Shown here piece after piece: positions 4,736 to 39,009 of a stretch of 64,000 nt of DNA. The DNA comes from Escherichia phage ZCEC14. The translations under genes and the position numbers were made by a program. The notes beneath the pieces are model-generated. The model saw only the letters and a list, made by a program, of their open reading frames with translations. It was not told the origin of the DNA and made no database searches. Numbering within the stretch: the stretch's first letter is position 1; each line of letters opens with the position of its first letter. The stretch lies in sequence record OP168898.1; one strand, written 5' to 3'.

Positions 4736-7684
4736 TTAGAATTTAAAATAATTACTAATTTTGCGAGCAATTTTAGTGAAGAAAGGCGTTTTTAATTCTT
4801 TAATTTCTTCGCTCATTTCTTGGATAGCCTTAATTAAAAGAGCATTCACAGCGGAGTTAGAAATTGTCAGAACATCAGATCCATCAACTTCAACTTTAGA
4901 CACAGCTTCCGGTAATTCTTTTTCAAGATCCTGAGCAATAATACCAACTTCACGTTTAATAACACTACGATCTTTAATAGACTTAACCTTATCGTATGTA
5001 TAAACTTTCAGTCGGCATACTTTTTCAAGTGCTCCGTTTTCTAGCTCTTTTTTATTAATCTTAAGACGACCATCGGAACGAATATACACATCGCTAAAGT
5101 TACCATTACCAGGAGAATAGAAAGTACCGTCGTAATGAAATTCAAATACCGCGTTAGGATGACCAGCATCAGGAGAAGCCTCCGCAGATCCAACACGAAT
5201 AATTGCTTGTCCCCAATTATTAGGGACACGACGAATACCAAGATCGACGGCAGTTACAAACCCTTGATTGGTGATTACACTTCTTCCTTTAATAATTGGA
5301 TAATAACAATCCTGTGAAACATAACCATGATCGACGAATATTGGCGCTTCTACTCGCCATTGGTTGCCCCAATCACCTGGTTGACTAGCAGTCCAACGTT
5401 CACCATGAACATATAATCGAACGTTATTGACATGAGCCATTTCGACGCCTTTTGGACTTAGCGTGATATCTCCTGCGTTTGTAATGTATACACCAGCATT
5501 AGTAGCATAACTATAGAACGCTAATCCATTATCATCACCACCCTTACCAATATACCAGTTACCAGTCCCGTCTACGTCACCACGAATATGCAAAGAATTA
5601 CTAGCAGGTGCTGATAATACAATAGAATCACCTGGGCTTTGAATTGTCAAGCGTCCGGTCATAATATCACCGCTTTTACCTACGCGAGTATTCAAAGCAG
5701 CGTCTAAGTTGGTTGCATCGTTGTATTTCTTCCAGATTGAACCAGCAATGTTACCATCAGTGTTCAAGAATGCTGCGCCAGCATAAACTCGACTTTGTGA
5801 CATGAATCGGCCAGACGGCAAGAAACGCCATGTAGCTAATTCGTTAGCTGTAGTTCCAGTAGCGGATAAATCACCTTGAGCAATGATACGATATTCTGAA
5901 CTAGCAATATCCATACCAGAAGCCATAGTAATATTTGTTACAGTGTTTTTCTGTTTTACAATAGGAGCAAACTGGTTTTTATTTGAATCGTCAATGGCCT
6001 GATATAATGGCGCAATAGTAATATTCTGATTTGCGTAAGTATTTGAACCAGAACCGCTAGCAGGGCCTTGAATATATGATCCCGGAGCAATTGAAATTTT
6101 CTTATTAGCACCAAGATTAATATCAGCGGTGATATTTAGCAATCCCCTAAAGTTTTGTTGAGCAGTCCAAGTATGTGATCCGTCTTCAAGAACAACACGG
6201 CGACAAGTGTTAGTCCTGTTTCCTGGATTTCCAGCTATACGCACAACAAAATAACGGTAGTTTGTTTGGGATACAGTACCACGCCAAACCTGAACAGTAC
6301 GTCCTGTGCCAGTATGTTCGCTAGGACCAACGGAAAACATAACCAGGTTTCCATCAATCGTGCCCCAATCCATATTTGCTGGCATATTCTTTATTTTTTT
6401 CAAAGGAACGCTAAACATACTACCAGGAACAAAATCAAAGGTTTGCCAATCTAACTCCGATAATTGAGCTTTAATACCACCCATACCCAAAGTAATTGGC
6501 AGAGAATAAGATGTATATACTTCGTTCCATGCACCCCACGCACCACCAGTATATGCACGCTCAAAAATACGATCGCGAGTAGTTTCACCCGTTCCGGCAG
6601 TAGTAAATTTTTGGAAAATAGCACCACCAGAAGCACGCTGTTTAACTTCTAGCAAACCAACAATAACGGCTGGTAAACCTTCGCCTGTAGGGCAATTAAT
6701 AACGGCATCAGTGCCTAAAATATTATATAACCCAGGAGTTTTAAAATCATTCAGATCTCCATCATAAAAAGTCGCTGGTGTGACATTACCGACTTGTTGC
6801 CACGGTCCCCATTTAGGCGCAGAAGCATCCCATGCAGCAGCAAGACAGCGAGTATAAACAACACCAGATCTAGTTGTATAACGCTGAGTTCTTGTGTATA
6901 AACCACCCTCAAAAATTTCCAAAAATCCTTGCGCGGCTGCTCCTTCTTCTGGGTAATGACGGTCAAACGATGCAATAGAACTTGAACTATTTCGCCATAA
7001 GCCGCAATGTTCTAATTCTCCCAAGCTATCAAGGTCAATCGTTTGTGAAAGTGGACGAGTTGACGCTTGAACATTACGCCAAACTCCCCACGGACCGTTA
7101 ACACCGTTCCATTTAGCAGACAAAGATCGAACATATACGTTACCAGATCTTACAGTATATCTCTGAGTACCAGCAAATTGACCGGCCACAAATACTTCTA
7201 GTACACCTACGGCATTTTCTTCTGGGAATTTATTTGCCGGTTGCGCATTTGTTGAAGTAGATTTCGACCAAACCCCAAGATATTCTTCAACAGGCCCATA
7301 CTCATCTAAATTAGCATCAACCGGTAATTCGCCGTTATTTTTTATAAACGTTGTGCTATTGACATTTATGTCAGATGGAGTTAGCGTGATATCTTTTGAC
7401 CCATCAAAGGATATACCATTAATTTTCCTAGGTGTTTGCAATTTAGTAGCTGTGCTAGAATTTCCAATTAAAGTTCCAGTTATATTTCTATTAACAGTTA
7501 AAGAACCATCAATTGTTCCTCCATATTTTAAACCTAATTCTATAACATTGCCTGAGTCATCTTTTGTGAAAATTGCTTTATCTTTTAAATTAATAGCCAA
7601 TTCACCTTCGGCTAATACTGAAGCAGCAGGAAGTTGACCTGCGGTTTTGCTTCTTTTAAATTGTATTTGTTTTAAAGTAGCCAT
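4736..7684 (-). CDS. 37: gp37 long tail fibre distal subunit with C-terminal intramolecular chaperone domain
   Basis: 982-aa ORF, Gly/Ser/Thr-rich fibre sequence; last ~113 aa carry the SDGRLK motif typical of self-cleaving chaperone domains; synteny 34-35-36-37-38. Confidence 0.9.
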
Positions 7685-7692
7685 AAGTCCTC

Positions 7693-8343
7693 TTAATAAT
7701 AGCCGAAATCTTGAACAGAATCCTTAATAACAATTTGATCAAATCGTGGAACATGTGAAGGTTGAGATGCAGGATTCTGTGAAAAAAGGTTTGGCGCAGT
7801 CAAATTTCCTGTCATAGTGTCTCCAGAGCGTAATACTCTAGAGTTTGCGTTTGCTGTAACAATATTTATTGCTCCATCAACATAATCTTTACGAGTAGCA
7901 TCTGATGCTGCGGAAGGAGTAGATGTAACAGTTACAGATGGAGCCGTTACAGCCCTAGTAAATGTTGTCAAACCTTCTGGCGTAATAGTAATTTGTCCAG
8001 TAGTGATTTCACTACCCGCAGGTCTAAAACTAATACCGCCAGAAGAGCCGCCAATTACAAGAGTATTACCGGTACCGCCACCGGAACGAATTCGAATTGG
8101 GGTTTCATTATTACTTAATTGAAGATAACTATTTACCCCGTAATTAATAGTAATTGGACCAGTGTAAGTACCACCAGTAGATTTAGAAACGAAATCATTA
8201 TCAGATGCCTGTGGTTTATTATATTCTGAATATATTTTAAATGATTTGTAGAGTACATCGTCACCGGCTGAATTCAACGGAAAATTTCCTTGATGCCAAA
8301 TGACAGATCCACCTACAGTTGAACCTACTTTTAAATCAGCCAT
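7693..8343 (-). CDS. 36: gp36 long tail fibre hinge connector
   Basis: 216-aa ORF in the gene 36 position; T4 gp36 is about 221 aa. Confidence 0.85.
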
Positions 8344-8367
8344 TGTATGCCCCTTTATTTTTAATAT

Positions 8368-8375
8368 TATTTATA
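8368..8375 (-). promoter_or_regulatory. late promoter (TATAAATA) for gene 36
   Basis: TATAAATA on the - strand 25 nt upstream of the gene 36 ATG. Confidence 0.6.
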
Positions 8376-8384
8376 AAGAAAAAA

Positions 8385-8400
8385 GGAACCCGAAGGCTCC
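8385..8400 (-). terminator. hairpin stable only in the - strand transcript, after gene 35
   Basis: - strand RNA GGAGCC-UUCG-GGUUCC (one G-U pair); the + strand version has an A-C mismatch; followed by a U-rich tract. Confidence 0.5.
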
Positions 8401-8406
8401 CTCAGT

Positions 8407-9525
8407 TTAAACTTCTCTAAATTCCTGTCCAAACACTTTACCAGTTTTAGACGATGCCTGTGTAGGAAGTACCATTATATCTGGAGGTGAAGAGGATTCA
8501 CCGATATAATTAACACGAATACCATTGACACCAAATTCAGCAGGTTTTGAAATTCCGCCATTTCTTGATACTTCAGAAAAGCTTAAATTTCTCATGCCGC
8601 CTTGACCTGCTTGAGCAGTTCTTTGTGCATATATCGTAAATCCTACTGCATTTTCAGGAACAACTACATAATCTTCTTTTAATTCCCAAGACCCAGCTTG
8701 CCCAGTAAACTCAGCTTGGGTCGAGGAAATATATCCATTTGATGCATCATAAAAACGAATAGATATATTTGTAGTTCCAAGATCAAGTAAATCAGCATCA
8801 GCATATAGTTGTGCTTTAAGATAAAGAACATCACCAGGAATTAAATTGTAGTCAGAAAGTTTACTTATAGCAGCTGAAGTTGGCAATCGCGCAATTTCAT
8901 TATTAGTTCCTCCAACCGCAGACATAAATTGCTCAACGCTTTCGTATGTTCTTTTAGGAAATCCTGTCGCTTCAACATCTTCTAAACTATCAAATACAAC
9001 ATCTAACATAGTTTGATAGTCATCCGTGCTTTTTCTATTACTTAGTTTAACATGCTCTAATGCAATAGCTCTTTTAGAAGAAGTATAAAAAGCAGCATAT
9101 GATACGTCAAATCTTGACAATACTGAATCTGATGGAAAAACTGAAGTTCCTGCTCCCCTTAACCAAGATACCACTTCAGGAGGAAAATTAACCTTTCCGC
9201 TAGTTAATATAGCAACAAGTCTATTGTTTGACAAAGAATTCATGAAACTAACAAAAGCAGCTGATGTAGTATTATTTGAAGTAGAAAAAGCATATGACTT
9301 ACTATCAACTAATGCTCCTGTGGAAGGGTCAAAAACTCTTAAATGAAGACCTGCGTCGAACGTTTGACTTCCTACAGGATTATCCTGAAATTTAACGTAT
9401 GGTCCTTCTGCAGTAGAAAGCGGGCAAGAACCCGCTATGCTTATTTTATATCTTACTGAATTGCTTTCCGATAAAAATGGCGTTTGGACATATCCTTGTC
9501 CAAACTCTGCCATAAATTTTTCCAT
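8407..9525 (-). CDS. 35: gp35 long tail fibre hinge protein
   Basis: 372-aa ORF matching recalled T4 gp35 N-terminus (MEKFMAEFGQGYVQTPFLSESNSVRYKISIAG...). Confidence 0.9.
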   Translation of the reverse strand: MEKFMAEFGQGYVQTPFLSESNSVRYKISIAGSCPLSTAEGPYVKFQDNPVGSQTFDAGLHLRVFDPSTGALVDSKSYAFSTSNNTTSAAFVSFMNSLSNNRLVAILTSGKVNFPPEVVSWLRGAGTSVFPSDSVLSRFDVSYAAFYTSSKRAIALEHVKLSNRKSTDDYQTMLDVVFDSLEDVEATGFPKRTYESVEQFMSAVGGTNNEIARLPTSAAISKLSDYNLIPGDVLYLKAQLYADADLLDLGTTNISIRFYDASNGYISSTQAEFTGQAGSWELKEDYVVVPENAVGFTIYAQRTAQAGQGGMRNLSFSEVSRNGGISKPAEFGVNGIRVNYIGESSSPPDIMVLPTQASSKTGKVFGQEFREV

Positions 9526-30855: not shown

Positions 30856-31191
30856 ATGTCTGAAGTACAACAGTTACCAATTCGTGCTGTCGGTGAATAT
30901 GTTATTTTAGTTTCTGAACCTGCACAAGCTGGTGATGAAGAAGTTACAGAATCAGGACTTATTATTGGTAAACGTGTCCAAGGTGAAGTTCCTGAACTGT
31001 GTGTAGTTCACTCTGTCGGTCCTGATGTTCCTGAAGGTTTTTGCGAAGTTGGTGATTTGACTTCTCTTCCAGTTGGTCAAATTCGAAATGTTCCGCATCC
31101 TTTTGTAGCTCTGGGTCTTAAGCAGCCAAAAGAAATTAAACAAAAATTCGTTACTTGCCACTATAAAGCTATTCCGTGTCTTTATAAGTGA
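30856..31191 (+). CDS. 31: gp31 co-chaperonin (GroES-like)
   Basis: 111-aa ORF matching recalled T4 gp31 ([39 protein letters not shown]...). Confidence 0.9.
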
Positions 31192-31338
31192 TATAAATAA
31201 TAATATGAATTGGGTGTCGGAATAATAAGTTAACCGAACAATTCTATGTGGTAGTCTACAACTGAGAGATCTGTCGAAAGAAGATGAAATTCAGAAGAAC
31301 GTGACTACCGAGTTTTAATCTCTAACGAGAATTTTTAA

Positions 31339-31587
31339 ATGATTAAACAATTACAACACGCTCTTGAACTGCAACGAAACGCATGGAATAATGGTCACGA
31401 AAACTATGGCGCATCTATTGATGTTGAAGCCGAAGCTCTTGAAATCCTGCGTTATTTCAAACATCTGAATCCTGCTCAAACTGCATTAGCTGCTGAGCTT
31501 CAGGAAAAAGATGAACTTAAATATGCTAAGCCTCTGGCTTCTGCTGCACGAAAAGCAGTTCGTCACTTTGTGGTAACATTGAAGTAA
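31339..31587 (+). CDS. rIII: rIII lysis-inhibition accessory protein
   Basis: 82-aa ORF matching recalled T4 rIII (MIKQLQHALELQRNAWNNGHENYG...). Confidence 0.85.
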   Translation: MIKQLQHALELQRNAWNNGHENYGASIDVEAEALEILRYFKHLNPAQTALAAELQEKDELKYAKPLASAARKAVRHFVVTLK

Positions 31588-31875
31588 TTTATTGGAGATT
31601 CACTGCCTTAGTGTGAGCTAAATCGAGGAGCCGTCGAACTGTCTGATTAATGATTTGCGAATCATTATAGTTTTAAGACCCCGGCAGTTTTACGGTGTAC
31701 CTCTTGAATGTTACTATCATGCGTCAGAAAAGTGTTATCTGTGTAAGTCTTGGTGGTATGATGACGGGTTTATGGTTATCCTGGTCGTTAAATATCCAAA
31801 AACCTATGTTCCCCTTGAGGGCTTGCGCAGGCAATGCCAATAAGTCCTGCATTTTCATTTAAAAGAGAATTTATA

Positions 31876-32052
31876 ATGGCAAAACAAGCTAAAGCAAAGA
31901 AAGCAGTTGAAAAGAAAGTTGGTGATTCTAAACGCGCTGGCTACAAGCGTGGGTCGAACTCTCGTATCAATCAAACTGTTGAGAAGATCATGCGCCGAGC
32001 ACGTGCGGTTCTTCGAGATGATGCTTCTCGTTTTGGTAAGCAGAAAGCATAA
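31876..32052 (+). CDS. small lysine/arginine-rich protein, 58 aa
   Basis: ATG at 31876 (track ORF from 31834 has a longer N-terminus); ends at a strong terminator. Confidence 0.4.
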   Translation: MAKQAKAKKAVEKKVGDSKRAGYKRGSNSRINQTVEKIMRRARAVLRDDASRFGKQKA

Positions 32053-32057
32053 GTTGA

Positions 32058-32086
32058 GGACTCCTTCGGGAGTCCTTTTTTATTTT
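32058..32086 (+). terminator. rho-independent terminator
   Basis: GGACTCC-TTCG-GGAGTCC then TTTTTTATTTT. Confidence 0.75.
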
Positions 32087-32105
32087 CCAAAGACTGCACA
32101 AAGTT

Positions 32106-32135
32106 GTTTACAGTACGGTTCCTTTGTGATAGTAT
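32106..32135 (+). promoter_or_regulatory. early promoter
   Basis: GTTTACA 32106-32112, 17-nt spacer, TAGTAT 32130-32135. Confidence 0.5.
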
Positions 32136-32162
32136 TATCTTACACAAACAAAGGAGAATAAA

Positions 32163-32495
32163 ATGAAAACTATTAATCTGAACGCTACAGTTAAAACTAA
32201 ATGCTTCAATGGTAAATATAATGAAACTATGTGGTTCTTAATGGCAGTTGAAGGTGATATTATTGAAGTAGAAACAACAGAAGGTATGGGAACAGATTTC
32301 ACCTTTACAATTCAAGTTCATAATTTCTTTACTGGTTGGATTTATGAATTGAATACAGTAATCGTTGGAAAAATTGAACAAAATGAATTAGGCGAATGGC
32401 ATTATGTTACAGCTCGCCAACGTGCAGAACGTTTAATTGAGAAGATGAAAAAAGTTGGTAAACTTGACATGCAGCACTGGAAAGTAGTAAAATAA
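32163..32495 (+). CDS. hypothetical protein, 110 aa
   Basis: ATG with AAGGAG SD. Confidence 0.5.
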   Translation: MKTINLNATVKTKCFNGKYNETMWFLMAVEGDIIEVETTEGMGTDFTFTIQVHNFFTGWIYELNTVIVGKIEQNELGEWHYVTARQRAERLIEKMKKVGKLDMQHWKVVK

Positions 32496-32563
32496 TTGTT
32501 TACTTTGGTACAGGATATGATATTATATACCTGTACCGCAATTAAACATCTCGGAGAATAAAA

Positions 32564-32929
32564 ATGAACTACATCAACTTTGAACGTAAATATGTTTCTA
32601 ATGGTATTGCAGGTTCTATTGATACCATCTGCCTTTGGAAACATCAAAATGGATCAGTATGCGAAATTGAACAGTATATGACTCCTAACTACGTTTATAT
32701 GCGATTTGAAAATGGCATCACGGTTTCAATCACGAAAGAAGGTTCTTCCTTTAAAATCGCATTAGATGATGATTTCCGTCAACGTGATTTAGGTACTCAT
32801 CCTTGTTGGAATGGCGTTAATCGCAAGCTTCTGGTTAAAACTTGGATTCGTCATATTCTGAGTAACAGAGCTAAACCTGAGCATCTTGAAGCAATCTTTG
32901 ATGTAGTTCTTAACGAATTTGATATTTAA
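32564..32929 (+). CDS. hypothetical protein, 121 aa
   Basis: ATG with GGAGAA SD. Confidence 0.5.
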   Translation: MNYINFERKYVSNGIAGSIDTICLWKHQNGSVCEIEQYMTPNYVYMRFENGITVSITKEGSSFKIALDDDFRQRDLGTHPCWNGVNRKLLVKTWIRHILSNRAKPEHLEAIFDVVLNEFDI

Positions 32930-32971
32930 AAAATAAATGAGGGGCTTCGGCCCCTTACTGAGGAAAATACT

Positions 32972-33259
32972 ATGTTTATGACTACTTATTTTGATACCCG
33001 TAAAAATTTCTGTGAAGTGGTTTTCTCAAAGGCGCCTAAAGGCCTTCCTGCTCATTTGCAACCTACCAGTGAATCGATTAAAAACTACGTTAATGTAGTA
33101 TGTCCTTTAGAGTTCCGTACTGTAAATGGACGTGATACTCTAGCAATCATTAAACTCAATCGTGAAATTGACATTGACCCTTCAATTGCGCGTGAAATTA
33201 ATATTTCTGACATTGGTGGTGGTAATGTTAAATCGCACGGATTTCAGATGAGGTTCTAA
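32972..33259 (+). CDS. hypothetical protein, 95 aa
   Basis: ATG with GAGGAAAA SD, preceded by the hairpin GGGGC-TTCG-GCCCC. Confidence 0.5.
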   Translation: MFMTTYFDTRKNFCEVVFSKAPKGLPAHLQPTSESIKNYVNVVCPLEFRTVNGRDTLAIIKLNREIDIDPSIAREINISDIGGGNVKSHGFQMRF

Positions 33260-33456
33260 TGAAATTCTTTTTGGGTCAAACTGTTGAATTAAAGGGAGTT
33301 GGTATACCTGGATTAATTTCTAAGGTTCTACCTCCATTTAAATGGAGTGGTATTCAAATAAAAGAGGCTTATATTGTTTCCTGGGTAGATGGAAATGAAG
33401 ACCTTCGTATGGGTGATGAATTATCTCCTATTTACGGATTAAAGGAATTAGTATGA
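33259..33456 (+). CDS. hypothetical protein, 65 aa
   Basis: track ORF, TAATG overlap. Confidence 0.4.
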   Translation: MKFFLGQTVELKGVGIPGLISKVLPPFKWSGIQIKEAYIVSWVDGNEDLRMGDELSPIYGLKELV

Positions 33457-33659
33457 ATATAATTAATAAGATTTTTGGAATTCAGTACATTAAGGTCACA
33501 TATAAAGTAACAGATAAAAATCCATATACTGATGAACACGAAGAACCACAAGTTGAATCTATTATATTAGAAAAGGACCCTAACTGGCCAGTTGAATTTC
33601 GTCTTCCTTGCTATGGTCATTGGGCTGATGTTGAAATTATAAGCATTGAAAATGTCTGA
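33453..33659 (+). CDS. hypothetical protein, 68 aa
   Basis: track ORF, ATGA-type overlap. Confidence 0.4.
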   Translation: MNIINKIFGIQYIKVTYKVTDKNPYTDEHEEPQVESIILEKDPNWPVEFRLPCYGHWADVEIISIENV

Positions 33660-34110
33660 GTTAGAGATTAGAAGTAATTTTAGATGGCCATCATGTGCAT
33701 TAAGTAATTTTGCCCAATGGCCTTTCGTTATGGATGGTATTCAATTTGGAGGTCTTGAAGGATTCCTCCAAGGGTGCAAGGTGAAAAATGTTGAACAACA
33801 ACGTCGTATATTTGGGTTATCCGGGCTTGCCGCCCAACAAGCTGGAAGGTCTTATGCTAGAGCTCAGGACCGTGGGACCCTCTTTTGGCTTGGAGTTCCG
33901 TTTTCAAGATACTCCCCGGCGTGGAAAGAATTATACACAAATGCATATTTTGAAGCAGCGATCCAAAACAAGGGCTTTCGTGATGCATTACAAGCCTCGA
34001 AAGGAAAAGTTTTGAAGCACAGCATGGCTAGTGGTCTAACAAAAGATGATACAATACTAACCGAAGCTGAATTTATTGATGTGTTAAACCTATTAAGAGA
34101 CTCTCTATGA
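33652..34110 (+). CDS. NADAR-like (YbiA-like) domain protein, 152 aa
   Basis: ATG at 33652 (track start 33646 is TTG); motif SNFAQWPF...DGIQFGGLEGFLQGCK resembles the NADAR/YbiA signature; assignment from motif recall only. Confidence 0.55.
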   Translation: MSELEIRSNFRWPSCALSNFAQWPFVMDGIQFGGLEGFLQGCKVKNVEQQRRIFGLSGLAAQQAGRSYARAQDRGTLFWLGVPFSRYSPAWKELYTNAYFEAAIQNKGFRDALQASKGKVLKHSMASGLTKDDTILTEAEFIDVLNLLRDSL

Positions 34111-34952
34111 AGCCTACTATTTTAACTGATATTGATGGAGTATGTTTAAGCTGGCAATCAGGCCTTCCTTATTTTGCTCAGAAATATAATCTTCCGTTGG
34201 AACATATTTTAAAAATGATCCAGGATGAGAAATTTATTTCTCCAGGTAAACTCTTTAATTGTGATGAAGAACTTGGCGTCAAGTTAATTGAAAAATACAA
34301 TCGTTCAGATTTTATTCGTTACTTGTCTCCGTATAAAGATGCCCTGTGTGCAATTAACAAATTAAAAGAAGATTATAATTTTGTAGCTGTTACAGCATTG
34401 GGTGATTATATTGACGCTCTGTTGAATCGTCAATTTAATTTGAATGCTCTTTTTCCTGGTGCCTTCTCAGAAGTAATGATGTGTGGTCATGATTCTTCAA
34501 AAGAAGAGTTATTCAAAAAGGCAAAAGAGAAATATAACGTAATTTGTTATATTGACGATCTCGCTCATCACTGCGATCACGCGAGTGAAATATTAAATGT
34601 TCCTGTTTATTGGATGGCTCGAGGAGAGCGTGGCAATATTCCAAAAACTGCCCAGCGAGTTTATACATGGAATGATGTAGAAAATAAGCTTTTTTCGCCG
34701 AAGGAAAATAAAGAAAGTTTTGATAATGAAAAAGCTATAAAAGATGTAATTGAGAAGATGGTTAAAAACGATTCTTTTCCTTGGAACACTACCTGGAGAA
34801 CGCCTGGATTTAATCCTTATAATCCATATTATCTATATCATCCATATCAGACACATCCGTTTCAGACATGGAACTATATTAAACCTGGCGGCATAGAGTA
34901 TTTGTATAATAGACCTACTTGTGGTGATAATATTTTCCAAGGAGCATTCTAA
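34107..34952 (+). CDS. HAD-superfamily nucleotidase-like protein with Pro/Tyr/Trp-rich C-terminal tail, 281 aa
   Basis: HAD motif I ILTDIDGV at the N-terminus; C-terminal 60 aa rich in P, Y, W, N. Confidence 0.55.
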   Translation: MKPTILTDIDGVCLSWQSGLPYFAQKYNLPLEHILKMIQDEKFISPGKLFNCDEELGVKLIEKYNRSDFIRYLSPYKDALCAINKLKEDYNFVAVTALGDYIDALLNRQFNLNALFPGAFSEVMMCGHDSSKEELFKKAKEKYNVICYIDDLAHHCDHASEILNVPVYWMARGERGNIPKTAQRVYTWNDVENKLFSPKENKESFDNEKAIKDVIEKMVKNDSFPWNTTWRTPGFNPYNPYYLYHPYQTHPFQTWNYIKPGGIEYLYNRPTCGDNIFQGAF

Positions 34953-35221
34953 TGTTTGTTGTTCACACTATTTATGAAAATGAAGGTAATACTACACGTG
35001 ATTACGGTCACGTAAATCAATTTTTTAGATGCAATCCAGAATTCCGAGCTCAAAAAGACGAACGAATTTTTAAAAAATGTGTGGAGCAAGGTTTCATTTA
35101 CGTCAAGCATTGGATGCAAGGAAATAAAGTTAGAACTACATATCATAGGTCTTTGACTGAGCTTAATGATGAATTGATTTATAATAGAGCTGTAAACCAA
35201 ACTCTAAAGGATGAACAATGA
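34952..35221 (+). CDS. hypothetical protein, 89 aa
   Basis: TAATG overlap; coupled to the ligase start. Confidence 0.45.
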   Translation: MFVVHTIYENEGNTTRDYGHVNQFFRCNPEFRAQKDERIFKKCVEQGFIYVKHWMQGNKVRTTYHRSLTELNDELIYNRAVNQTLKDEQ

Positions 35222-36678
35222 TTCTTAAAATTCTGAACGAAATAGCATCTATTGGTTCAACTAAGCAGAAGCAAGCAATTCTTGAAAAGAATAAAGATAA
35301 TGAATTGCTTAAACGAGTATATCGTCTGACTTATTCTCGTGGGTTGCAATATTATATCAAGAAATGGCCTAAACCTGGTATTGCTACCCAGAGTTTTGGA
35401 ATGTTGACTCTTACCGATATGCTTGACTTCATTGAATTCACGTTAGCTACTCGGAAATTGACCGGAAATGCGGCAATTGAGGAATTAACTGGATATATCA
35501 CCGATGGTAAAAAGGATGATGTTGAAGTTTTGCGTCGAGTTATGATGCGAGACCTTGAATGTGGTGCTTCAGTATCTATTGCAAACAAAGTTTGGCCAGG
35601 TTTAATTCCTGAACAACCTCAAATGCTGGCAAGTTCTTATGATGAAAAAGGCATTAGTAAGAATATCAAATTTCCAGCCTTTGCACAGTTAAAAGCAGAT
35701 GGAGCTCGGTGTTTTGCTGAAGTTAGAGGTGATGAATTAGATGATGTTCGTCTTTTATCACGAGCTGGTAATGAATATCTAGGATTAGATCTTCTTAAGG
35801 AAGAGTTAATCAAAATGACTGCTGAAGCCCGCCAGATTCATCCAGAAGGTGTGTTAATCGATGGTGAATTGGTATACCATGAGCAAGTTGAAAAGGAGCC
35901 AGAAGGCCTAGATTTTCTTTTTGGCACTCCTGAAATTAGTAAAGCTAAAGAATTCGCCGAAGTAGCTGAATCTCGTACTGCTTCTAATGGAATCGCCAAT
36001 AAATCTTTAAAGGGAACTATTTCAGAAAAAGAAGCACAATGTATGAAGTTTCAGGTCTGGGATTATGTTCCGTTAGTAGAAATATACGGTCTTCCGACGT
36101 TTCGTTTAAAATATGATGTACGTTTTTCTAAACTAGAACAAATGACATCAGGATATGATAAAGTAATTTTAATTGAAAACCAGCTAGTAAATAACCTAGA
36201 TGAAGCTAAGGTAATTTATAAAAAGTATATTGACCAGGGTCTTGAAGGTATTATTCTCAAAAATACCGATGGATTGTGGGAAAATGCTCGTTCAAAAAAT
36301 CTCTATAAATTTAAAGAAGTAATTGATGTTGATTTAAAAATTGTAGGAATTTATCCTCACCGTAAAGACCCTACTAAAGCGGGTGGATTTATTCTTGAAT
36401 CAGAGTGTGGAAAAATTAAAGTCAATGCTGGCTCAGGTTTAAAAGATAAAGCTGGTGTAAAATCGCATGAACTTGACCGTACTCGTATTATGGAAAACCA
36501 AAATTATTATATTGGAAAAATTCTAGAGTGCGAATGCAACGGTTGGTTAAAATCTGACGGCCGCACTGATTACGTTAAATTATTTCTTCCGATTGCGATT
36601 CGTTTACGTGAAGATAAAACTAAAGCTAATACATTCGAAGATGTATTTGGTGATTTTCATGAGGTAACTGGTCTATGA
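35218..36678 (+). CDS. 30: ATP-dependent DNA ligase
   Basis: 486-aa ORF matching recalled T4 DNA ligase; adenylation-site context KADGAR. Confidence 0.95.
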   Translation: MILKILNEIASIGSTKQKQAILEKNKDNELLKRVYRLTYSRGLQYYIKKWPKPGIATQSFGMLTLTDMLDFIEFTLATRKLTGNAAIEELTGYITDGKKDDVEVLRRVMMRDLECGASVSIANKVWPGLIPEQPQMLASSYDEKGISKNIKFPAFAQLKADGARCFAEVRGDELDDVRLLSRAGNEYLGLDLLKEELIKMTAEARQIHPEGVLIDGELVYHEQVEKEPEGLDFLFGTPEISKAKEFAEVAESRTASNGIANKSLKGTISEKEAQCMKFQVWDYVPLVEIYGLPTFRLKYDVRFSKLEQMTSGYDKVILIENQLVNNLDEAKVIYKKYIDQGLEGIILKNTDGLWENARSKNLYKFKEVIDVDLKIVGIYPHRKDPTKAGGFILESECGKIKVNAGSGLKDKAGVKSHELDRTRIMENQNYYIGKILECECNGWLKSDGRTDYVKLFLPIAIRLREDKTKANTFEDVFGDFHEVTGL

Positions 36679-36863
36679 AAGCTTACTTAGAAACAATTGT
36701 TATAGCTCAAAAAGAAGGTGGAGATGTTTCTACTTCTGTATCACAAGTCATTCTCGAATTTGTAGATGCGTATGCTTATAATAAATTTACAGAAACATTT
36801 GATGCCTACGAAAAAGGTCCAAAGTTTGAAATATATCGTACTCTCTTACCATTAGATTATTAA
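36675..36863 (+). CDS. hypothetical protein, 62 aa
   Basis: ATGA overlap with the ligase stop. Confidence 0.4.
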   Translation: MKAYLETIVIAQKEGGDVSTSVSQVILEFVDAYAYNKFTETFDAYEKGPKFEIYRTLLPLDY

Positions 36864-36879
36864 AGGCCTTCGGGCCTTT
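36862..36879 (+). terminator. hairpin terminator
   Basis: AAAGGCC-TTCG-GGCCTTT. Confidence 0.5.
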
Positions 36880-36884
36880 AATTT

Positions 36885-36892
36885 TATAAATA
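36885..36892 (+). promoter_or_regulatory. late promoter (TATAAATA) for the alt genes
   Basis: TATAAATA on the + strand about 20 nt upstream of the alt-1 start. Confidence 0.6.
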
Positions 36893-36915
36893 GAATAAAC
36901 ACTAGAGAGGATATG

Positions 36916-39009
36916 ATGGAACTTATTACAGAATTATTTGACGAAGATACTACTCTTCCGATTACAAACTTAAATCCAAAGAAGAAAATACCGCAAATTT
37001 TTTCAGTTCATGTTGATGATGCAATTGAACAACCAGGCTTTCGTTTATGTACCTATACATCTGGAGGTGATACTAACCGTGATTTAAAGATGGGCGATAA
37101 AATGATGCACATTGTTCCTTTTACACTAACTGCTAAAGGTTCAATTGCTAAATTAAAAGGTCTCGGTCCAAGCCCAATTAATTACATCAATTCAGTTTTT
37201 ACTGTTGCAATGCAAACAATGCGTCAGTATAAAATTGATGCCTGTATGCTTCGTATTCTTAAGTCTAAAACTGCTGGTCAAGCTCGACAAATTCAAGTTA
37301 TTGCTGATAGACTTATCCGTAGTCGTTCAGGTGGCAGATACGTCCTTCTTAAGGAACTCTGGGACTATGATAAAAAGTATGCATATATTCTTATACATCG
37401 CAAAAATGTATCACTAGAAGACATTCCAGGAGTTCCGGAAATTAGTACCGAGCTCTTTACTAAAGTTGAATCGAAGGTCGGCGATGTTTATATCAATAAA
37501 GATACCGGAGCTCAAGTAACTAAAAATGAGGCAATTGCAGCATCTATTGCACAAGAAAATGATAAACGTTCTGACCAAGCTGTTATTGTTAAAGTTAAAA
37601 TTTCCCGTAGAGCAATTGCGCAAAGTCAATCATTAGAATCTTCTAGATTTGAAAGTGAATTATTCCAGAAGTATGAATCTACCGCAGCTAATTTTAATAA
37701 ACCTGCTACCGCTCCTTTAATTCCCGAAGCAGAAGAAATGAAGCTTGGAATTAATTCATTAGCTTCTAAAACTAAGGCAGCAAAAATTATTGCTGAAGGA
37801 ACTGCAAATGAACTTCACTATGACTATAAATTCTTTTCAAAAAGTGAGGTTGATGAAGTTTCTGAAAAAATTAAAGATGTAATTCTTAATGCGATTAAAA
37901 ATGAACCAACTACTTCAATAAAATGTTTAGAGAAATACGCAGCAGCTGTTAATAAATTCTTTGAAGAATATAAAGATAATTGGCTTGATAAACATAATAA
38001 AACCCGTAAAGGACAGCCAGATGAAGTCTGGGAAGAAATAACTAAAAATTCCTGGAACGCAGCAAAAACTAAATTCCTCAAACGAATGATTTATAGTTTT
38101 TCTGGAATTGGTGCAGGTCCAATGATTGATATTACTATTGCCCGTGATGGTTCTAAATATACTCCATCACAAAAGCGCGGCATTAGAGAATATTGTGGAT
38201 CAGGATATACTGACATCAATAATCTTCTTTTAGGCCGCTACAATCCAGAACGATATGATGTAATGAGTGAAAAAGAAATTGAATCTGCGATAAATAATTT
38301 AGATTCAGCTTTTGAAAATGGTGATCGTATACCAGAAGGCATTACAGTTTATCGTGCTCAAAGCATGACTGCTCCTATATACGAAGCACTAGTTAAAAAT
38401 AAAGTGTTCTATTTCAGAAATTTTGTATCTACTTCTTTAACTCCTATCATTTTTGGACGTTTTGGAATTACACATGCTGGTATCGGTCTTTTAGAACCAG
38501 AAGCTCGCAATGAATTAACAGTTGATAAAAATGAAGAAGGAATAACTATTAATCCAAACGAAATAAGAGCGTATAAAGAAAATCCTGAATACGTTAAAGT
38601 TCAAATAGGATGGGCAATTGATGGAGCTCATAAAGTTAATGTTGTATATCCAGGAAGTCTCGGAATAGCAACAGAAGCTGAAGTTATTCTACCGCGCGGA
38701 TTGATGGTCAAAGTTAATAAAATAACTGATGCTTCTAATAATGACGGAACAACATCTAATAATACAAAACTCATTCAAGCTGAAGTTATGACTACGGAAG
38801 AACTCACCGAATCAGTAATTTATGACGGTGACCGTCTAATGGAAACTGGCGAAGTAGTTGCAATGACAGGTGATATTGAAATAGAAGACAGAGTTGACTT
38901 TGCATCATTTGTTTCATCAAATGTTAAACAGAAAGTAGAATCATCTCTTGGAATTATTGCGTCTTGCATAGATATTACAAACATGCCTTACAAGTTCGTT
39001 CAAGGATAA
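36916..39009 (+). CDS. alt: Alt-like ADP-ribosyltransferase, paralog 1 (697 aa)
   Basis: N-terminus MELITELFDE... shared with paralog 2; C-terminal R / STS / ExE-type transferase motifs (YRAQ, FVSTSL, EAEVILPRG). Confidence 0.8.
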   Translation: MELITELFDEDTTLPITNLNPKKKIPQIFSVHVDDAIEQPGFRLCTYTSGGDTNRDLKMGDKMMHIVPFTLTAKGSIAKLKGLGPSPINYINSVFTVAMQTMRQYKIDACMLRILKSKTAGQARQIQVIADRLIRSRSGGRYVLLKELWDYDKKYAYILIHRKNVSLEDIPGVPEISTELFTKVESKVGDVYINKDTGAQVTKNEAIAASIAQENDKRSDQAVIVKVKISRRAIAQSQSLESSRFESELFQKYESTAANFNKPATAPLIPEAEEMKLGINSLASKTKAAKIIAEGTANELHYDYKFFSKSEVDEVSEKIKDVILNAIKNEPTTSIKCLEKYAAAVNKFFEEYKDNWLDKHNKTRKGQPDEVWEEITKNSWNAAKTKFLKRMIYSFSGIGAGPMIDITIARDGSKYTPSQKRGIREYCGSGYTDINNLLLGRYNPERYDVMSEKEIESAINNLDSAFENGDRIPEGITVYRAQSMTAPIYEALVKNKVFYFRNFVSTSLTPIIFGRFGITHAGIGLLEPEARNELTVDKNEEGITINPNEIRAYKENPEYVKVQIGWAIDGAHKVNVVYPGSLGIATEAEVILPRGLMVKVNKITDASNNDGTTSNNTKLIQAEVMTTEELTESVIYDGDRLMETGEVVAMTGDIEIEDRVDFASFVSSNVKQKVESSLGIIASCIDITNMPYKFVQG

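Follow-up and report, generated by a model that had tools for sequence, protein, structure and literature searches.

Two overlapping open reading frames (ORFs) in Escherichia phage ZCEC14, one NADAR-like and the other HAD-like, lie close to a DNA ligase gene and raise the question of whether they act together. A first-pass annotation, made from the letters of the window (the whole 64,000-nt stretch of sequence record OP168898.1 that was analyzed), had proposed that they constitute one ADP-ribose- or nucleotide-processing module, possibly for counter-defense or DNA repair. The elements that drew attention to the locus, namely, an SNFAQWPF motif in the first ORF and an ILTDIDGV motif and a Pro/Tyr/Trp-rich tail in the second, were present as described. 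We examined the identity of the locus, the likely function of each product and the evidence for a partnership between them.

Identity and organization of the locus

A stretch of ∼1.9 kb around the two ORFs matched 658 phage records, almost all of them from T4-like phages of enterobacteria. Identity was 95 to 99% in 418 phage records, phage T6 among them (97.3%), and was 97.5% with Escherichia phage ELT1. The same ORFs are annotated in the same order in T4 and T6, namely, 30.6, 30.5, 30.4, 30.3, 30.2, 30.1, 30 (DNA ligase), alt.1 and alt. The window is from a Tequatrovirus, a T4/T6-like phage, and the ORF pair is T4 genes 30.3 and 30.2 (Table 1). Comparison with relatives gave dN/dS values of 0.06 to 0.09 for the core of the gene 30.2 product (gp30.2) and of 0.05 to 0.47 for its tail. 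Conservation across hundreds of genomes and dN/dS values far below 1 indicated that both genes are genuine.

Neighboring genes overlapped by 1, 4 or 8 nt at each junction from 30.6 (position 32972) to alt.1 (position 36863), a run of eight genes. A scan of positions 31000 to 37000 for promoters and terminators produced counts that were not above those for shuffled sequence, and none was found that divided 30.3 from 30.2. The pair had been described as sitting just before the DNA ligase gene; proximity to this gene was confirmed, but gene 30.1 separates 30.2 from the ligase gene and hence the pair is not directly upstream.

Table 1. Coordinates of genes, motifs and domains at the gene 30.3/30.2 locus of the window
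Feature	Position	Strand	Remarks
Gene 30.3 = adfN (anti-DarT factor NADAR)	33652..34110	+	ATG start, 152 aa, full length
AdfN catalytic E36 (GAA)	33757-33759	+	In LEGFLQGCK motif; invariant among 38 family members
AdfN catalytic K43 (AAG)	33778-33780	+	In LEGFLQGCK motif; at least 90% conserved among 38 family members
AdfN H123 (CAC)	34018..34020	+	Last strand; marker of the phage gp30.3 branch of NADARs; invariant among 38 members
ATGA shared by adfN stop codon and 30.2 start codon	34107..34110	+	4-nt overlap, read from sequence
Gene 30.2	34107..34952	+	281 aa; starts MKPTILTDIDGV, ends in Pro/Tyr/Trp-rich tail; stop codon 34950-34952
gp30.2 residues 1-195, predicted HAD-superfamily phosphatase core with helical C1-type cap	34107..34691	+	Model pLDDT >90
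HAD motif I, ILTDIDGV	34119..34142	+	D8 34128-34130, D10 34134-34136
HAD motifs II-IV	34392..34559	+	T96 34392-34394, K132 34500-34502, D150-D151 34554-34559
gp30.2 residues 223-281, Pro/Tyr/Trp-rich tail, predicted disordered	34773..34949	+	Followed by stop codon 34950-34952
Conserved box GGIEYLYNRPT	34887..34919	+	Family consensus GTGIEYLxRQPT; 15-19 residues from C terminus
Gene 30.1 (DUF3045)	34952..35221	+	Pfam PF11243, E 2.9e-64
Gene 30, ATP-dependent DNA ligase	35218..36678	+	Pfam PF01068; steadiest neighbor of gene 30.2

Gene 30.3 and the NADAR enzyme AdfN

The product of gene 30.3 matched the Pfam family Phage_30_3 (PF08010) with an E value of 2.2e-70 and a score of 235 bits (cutoff, 36 bits), the alignment covering profile positions 1 to 138 of 138. 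It was identical to T4 gp30.3, known as AdfN, at 151 of 152 residues and of equal length, with M125 in the window and I125 in T4 as the lone change. Its C terminus is the T4 C terminus, so that the 152-aa protein has an intact C-terminal helix. The protein carries SNFAQWPF...DGIQFGGLEGFLQGCK, and a family profile of 38 diverse relatives detected Escherichia coli YbiA in the PDB (E value, 0.006) across the SNFA...DG...E.FQ..K motif. An AlphaFold (AF2) model of the protein had a pLDDT of 94.3. Foldseek comparison of this model with the PDB recovered YbiA (2b3w), the P. nicotianae NADAR with ADP-ribose (8bau) and the G. lovleyi DarT-linked NADAR (8bat), each with a probability of at least 0.99, and no match beyond these NADAR structures. 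By sequence and predicted fold, the gene 30.3 product is the stand-alone NADAR ADP-ribosylglycohydrolase AdfN.

Experiments on the T4 protein have been published. Purified T4 AdfN hydrolyzed guanosine-linked ADP-ribose and did not hydrolyze the thymidine-linked form (Toxins 2024, PMC11125620), and the purified protein alone was able to strip ADP-ribose off DNA in vitro (PMC11825919). The gene was found through phage crosses and was renamed adfN (Johannesman et al., Nat Commun 2025, PMC11825919; preprint PMC11257639). Deletion of adfN from T4 or T2 reduced plaquing on DarTG1 hosts by approximately four logs, no effect of AdfN on DarTG2 was detected (PMC11825919), and function of the T4 protein was abolished by E36A and K43A (PMC11257639). 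Phage RB69, whose own allele is without the last 15 residues and is inactive, was rescued by ectopic AdfN (PMC11825919). T4 AdfN could not relieve DarT1 toxicity in uninfected cells (PMC11125620; PMC11825919) and was fully effective only during a T-even infection, DNA modification having been ruled out as the reason (PMC11825919). The authors of that study suggested that AdfN may depend on a further T-even protein (PMC11825919). The unrelated NADARs of Bas32 and Bas60 needed no helper (PMC11825919).

The first-pass reading of this ORF as a NADAR enzyme that reverses guanine ADP-ribosylation by DarT was upheld by the Pfam match, the 99% identity to T4 AdfN, the NADAR fold and the published work (PMC11125620; PMC11825919). 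The in vitro assays and the plaque tests of a deletion mutant that it had proposed have already been published for T4 AdfN, the plaque tests with DarTG1 hosts (PMC11125620; PMC11825919). Reversal of DarT DNA ADP-ribosylation by a phage NADAR is known, having been published in 2024 to 2025, and the window, in which the published protein differs by one residue, adds nothing new on AdfN. From the identity, the conserved catalytic residues and the fold we infer the same activity for the window protein, the activity of the T4 protein having been shown experimentally. During infection, guanines in the phage DNA would be ADP-ribosylated by the host DarT1 toxin, and cleavage of ADP-ribose from these guanines by AdfN would enable phage replication to go on. 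AdfN would be an orphan-antitoxin counter-defense against DarTG1 and, due to its inactivity on thymidine-linked ADP-ribose, would not counter DarTG2.

Gene 30.2: a predicted phosphatase with a Pro/Tyr/Trp-rich tail

Searches with the single sequence of gp30.2 were nearly blank, and hence profiles and structure prediction were needed. No Pfam match was obtained at an E value of ≤1 and no match to NCBIfam, the protein itself fell below the Pfam NT5C and HAD thresholds, no curated HAD sequence model matched, and the PDB search detected a weak match to cdN (2jao; E value, 0.37). The protein matched PHROG 420, which is annotated as being of 'unknown function', and a few GenBank records label its homologues '5' nucleotidase' or 'phosphatase'. 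A search of a paper library for gp30.2 or gene 30.2 of bacteriophage T4 returned nothing relevant and no experimental report, and '30.2' appeared nowhere in a T4-related genome review.

A homology search recovered 100 relatives of gp30.2, and each one with a source name was from a T4-like phage. An exhaustive profile search of a protein library clustered at 50% identity yielded 1,391 cluster representatives with E values of ≤0.001, mostly of 190 to 215 residues. The sole meaningful match of the family profile in the PDB was cdN (2jao; E value, 0.023). A Pfam scan of 70 of these representatives, all distant relatives, detected NT5C most commonly (18 of the 70 at E values of <0.01; best E value, 4e-10), Hydrolase (PF00702) in 12 and HAD_2 (PF13419) in 11. 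Residues D8, D10, G11, K132, D150 and D151 were invariant and T96 was at least 90% conserved in an alignment of 31 relatives; among 71 distant relatives, D8, D10 and K132 were invariant, with T96 and D151 at least 90% conserved. The predicted structure contained the Rossmann-like HAD core fold and a helical insertion of roughly 70 residues (approximately residues 16 to 86) between motifs I and II, which corresponds to a C1-type cap. Deoxyribonucleotidases were among the Foldseek matches with the lowest rmsd and the highest target TM-scores.

A DxD pair in the HAD superfamily denotes a phosphotransferase and not a dehalogenase. Capped members of the superfamily act on small molecules, while cap-less members, such as Pnkp, act on macromolecules. 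Sequence conservation and the structural model make it near certain that gp30.2 is a HAD phosphatase; our best guess for its subfamily is a divergent NT5C-like nucleotidase. The protein would function as a Mg-dependent HAD phosphomonoesterase using the conserved DxD nucleophile/acid pair, Thr, Lys and DD motif, and its helical cap would be of a type that closes over small substrates. By analogy with its nearest relatives, the substrate is most likely a (deoxy)nucleoside monophosphate. The likeness to 5'(3')-deoxyribonucleotidases reported in the first-pass annotation was correct as to the superfamily and the nearest relatives but did not extend to a score above the Pfam NT5C/HAD thresholds.

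In the gp30.2 model, a helix at residues 202 to 221 preceded the tail, and pLDDT values of <50 were observed at residues 225 to 234, 238 to 263 and 272 to 281. Aromatic residues or Pro accounted for 31% of the last 86 residues (196 to 281). Within Tequatrovirus, the dN/dS values indicated purifying selection on the tail, looser than that on the core, and variation in the tail consisted of in-frame indels only, located in the PYNPY...HPY stretch; T4 differed by a 3-aa indel. Tails of at least 40 residues, rich in Trp, Tyr, Phe and Pro, were present in ∼60% of representatives of the gp30.2 family and missing from ∼40%, with tail-less proteins occurring in RB69-like, Acinetobacter and other phages. 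The tails were mostly unalignable from lineage to lineage. One sub-group of them, drawn from several phage lineages and including the tail in the window, ends with a conserved GIEYLxxxPT box. The sequence GGIEYLYNRPT was unique within the window, and a profile search with the box for other proteins returned only two gp30.2 C-terminal fragments. The natural interpretation of a tail predicted to be disordered and bearing such a box (GIEYLYNRPT here) is a docking element, through which the enzyme would probably attach to another protein.

Gene neighborhoods and the relationship between AdfN and gp30.2

The neighborhoods of gene 30.2 were examined in 78 viral-contig loci containing a gp30.2 relative, with 4-kb flanks, and in one complete genome, that of Phi1. 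A ligase gene was detected within the flanks in 73 of the 78 loci, being downstream of the gp30.2 gene in 70 and usually <600 nt away. Gene order was rearranged around the most distant relatives (loci L074 to L076 and L089), where ligase was still close but upstream. An AdfN relative was found within 4 kb in 37 of the 78 loci, adjacent to the gp30.2 gene in 22 and split from it by 480 to 1250 nt of inserted ORFs in 15. The AdfN homologue of Klebsiella phage vB_VIPKPNOM02 was located 59 kb away from gp30.2, in a group of tRNA genes. That of Krischvirus Phi1 directly overlapped the ligase gene, and a profile search of all ORFs in this complete genome detected no gp30.2 (top score, 12 bits). Seven AdfN-family loci outside the T4-like phages had no gp30.2 relative within 4 kb. 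At the genome level, the spread of the two families was nearly equal, with 1510 phage records for AdfN and 1455 for gp30.2 and matching host genera.

A functional pair could take either of two forms. In one, gp30.2, an obvious candidate from its position, would be the T-even-specific factor on which AdfN depends in vivo and might, for instance, localize or stabilize AdfN through the tail; in the other, gp30.2 would clear reaction products of nucleotide or ADP-ribose origin. The pairing draws on the adjacency and the overlapping stop and start codons in Tequatrovirus and Mosigvirus-like loci, on the near-identical spread of the families over T4-like phages and on the contrast between T4 AdfN, fully working only in T-even infection, and the helper-free NADARs of Bas32 and Bas60; the docking-like appearance of the tail and its terminal box fits the helper form. 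Translational coupling was rejected as a sign of partnership, since the 4-nt ATGA does exist but overlaps of 1 to 8 nt run through the whole eight-gene series from 30.6 to alt.1 and are generic to the block. Co-distribution was rejected as well, as any two widely kept genes of the T4 family would give the same pattern, which many other T4-family-specific genes share, and Phi1, in which AdfN abuts the ligase gene without gp30.2, is a direct counter-example. The presence of AdfN near fewer than half of the gp30.2 loci (37 of 78), the 59-kb separation in the Klebsiella phage and the loci outside T4-like phages also counted against a pair. Furthermore, purified AdfN is active alone in vitro (PMC11825919), and RB69-type gp30.2 is tail-less, yet RB69 was fully rescued by ectopic AdfN. 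The two forms, even taken jointly, were judged to be very improbable, and the single ADP-ribose/nucleotide-processing module of the first-pass annotation was not sustained by the partial proximity, the Phi1 genome or the generic overlap. If gp30.2 were nevertheless the T-even factor for AdfN, this would account for the effectiveness of T4-type AdfN in vivo.

The linkage to ligase suggested another role, in which gp30.2 would act on DNA ends as a 3'-phosphatase, much as the T4 Pnkp HAD domain does, and would convert nicks with 3'-phosphates into ligatable 3'-OH ends. Ligase was present in 73 of the 78 loci and stayed adjacent in two arrangements, lying downstream in 70 loci and upstream in the rearranged ones, and a weak PHROG match of gp30.2 to 'polynucleotide kinase' was detected (E value, 0.006). 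Against such a role, a small substrate is indicated by the helical cap that separates motifs I and II, Pnkp is already encoded in phages of this type (locus L090; pseT of Phi1), and the linkage may reflect inheritance of the gene order; we regard help to ligase as improbable. Another reading, also on the unlikely side, is that gp30.2 acts as a HAD phosphatase on a non-nucleotide metabolite, for example, a sugar phosphate or phosphoglycolate, or as a pool-cleaning enzyme with no connection to DNA ends or ADP-ribose; in its favor, the protein in the window does not match Pfam NT5C. A nucleotide substrate is favored over this alternative by cdN being the only sequence-profile match of the family in the PDB, by NT5C being the top Pfam family in the distant relatives and by the position of deoxyribonucleotidases among the best Foldseek rmsd values and target TM-scores.

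Overall, the evidence favors genes 30.3 and 30.2 being independent genes within a shared, conserved and tightly packed early block upstream of DNA ligase. It is highly likely that 30.3 encodes AdfN, that 30.2 encodes a HAD phosphatase and that the two are neighbors through conserved gene order. The remaining value of the locus lies in gp30.2, a putative phosphatase of T4-like phages that is widespread, with about 1,450 records from phages, and persistently linked to ligase.

The T4 AdfN protein resembles window gp30.3 in the catalytic residues E36, K43 and H123, in length and in the position of its gene between 30.4 and 30.2; the one substitution, M125 for I125, is conservative and no functional difference is expected. 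The DarG1/DarT1-linked NADARs (8bat) and YbiA (2b3w) have the YbiA/NADAR fold and the SNFA...E.FQ..K motif in common with AdfN and, like T4 AdfN, hydrolyze guanine-linked ADP-ribose in vitro (PMC11125620). The position occupied by His in AdfN and other phage NADARs is Asp in the DarG1/DarT1-linked NADARs and Glu in YbiA (PMC11125620). DarG1-type NADARs have an N-terminal extension that AdfN is without. Unlike the DarT1-linked NADAR antitoxins, AdfN has no linked DarT gene and does not rescue uninfected cells from DarT1.

The predicted architecture of gp30.2, with a HAD fold, a helical cap, a DxDGV motif I and a DD motif IV, is that of cdN, mdN and the bacterial deoxyribonucleotidase-like protein 3bwv (NT5C, PF06941), to which it has about 15 to 20% identity. 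In contrast to these proteins, gp30.2 has an 86-residue C-terminal extension, of which about 60 residues are predicted to be disordered. The HAD 3'-phosphatase domain of T4 Pnkp (1ltq and 5uj0) aligned with gp30.2 over the core only (126 to 129 residues), and gp30.2 differs from this domain by its inserted cap, the feature that points to a small substrate.

Linkage of the gp30.2-type gene to the DNA ligase gene

The gp30.2-type phosphatase gene is linked more tightly to the DNA ligase gene than to adfN, which encodes the NADAR ADP-ribosylglycohydrolase AdfN. An ATP-dependent DNA ligase gene adjoined the phosphatase gene in 73 of the 78 viral loci carrying a gp30.2 relative (window 34107-36678), and two gene orders were detected, with the ligase gene downstream in 70 loci and upstream in L074 to L076 and L089. 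In the window, the gene for the Alt ADP-ribosyltransferase lies ∼2.8 kb downstream of adfN, and thus both a writer and an eraser of ADP-ribose are encoded in the same early block. The order phosphatase-ligase-Alt was also present in a distant relative (L090, with Alt at 7544-8702). The run of eight genes that begins with 30.6 and ends with alt.1 (window 32972-36863) has an overlap of 1, 4 or 8 nt at every junction; stop/start overlap is therefore uninformative here about specific functional pairing.

Analysis of the gp30.2 tails, which are disordered, rich in aromatic residues and proline, and otherwise unalignable, detected a C-terminal box, GTGIEYLxRQPT (window 34887-34919), that is conserved in several phage lineages and was seen in the gp30.2 family only.

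The 30.8/30.7 region, with both of its flanking hairpins, is located upstream of adfN and 30.2. Terminator-like sites were no more frequent in window 31000-37000 than in shuffled sequence.

Features of the adfN region in the window
Feature	Position	Strand	Remark
Strong terminator-like hairpin	32056-32077	+	Flanks 30.8/30.7 region
Strong terminator-like hairpin	32940-32955	-	Flanks 30.8/30.7 region
ORF 30.3'	33788-34015	+	Within adfN, different reading frame
Alt gene	36913-39009		Downstream of adfN

Coding content of gene 30.3

In T4, 30.3' is annotated as 'internal translation in a different reading frame'. This frame of 75 codons was open in the window and in most relatives. Comparison of these sequences makes 30.3' doubtful as a gene: of eight relatives of ∼86% identity, seven had ATC, ATT or ACG in place of its ATG, as did the close relative L003, and the eighth (L009) retained the ATG but had a stop after 13 codons.

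Gene 30.3 itself codes for 152 residues in both T4 and the window, which is discrepant with the T4 gp30.3 construct of 'residues 1-208' described in the Methods of a 2024 study (Toxins; PMC11125620).

AdfN in Krischvirus Phi1

No gp30.2 relative was found in the genome of Krischvirus Phi1 (NC_009821), in which the gene for the AdfN homologue directly overlaps the ligase gene (L092, 3495-5457). Phi1, having an AdfN homologue and lacking gp30.2, therefore offers a naturally occurring test of whether NADARs of the AdfN type depend on gp30.2.
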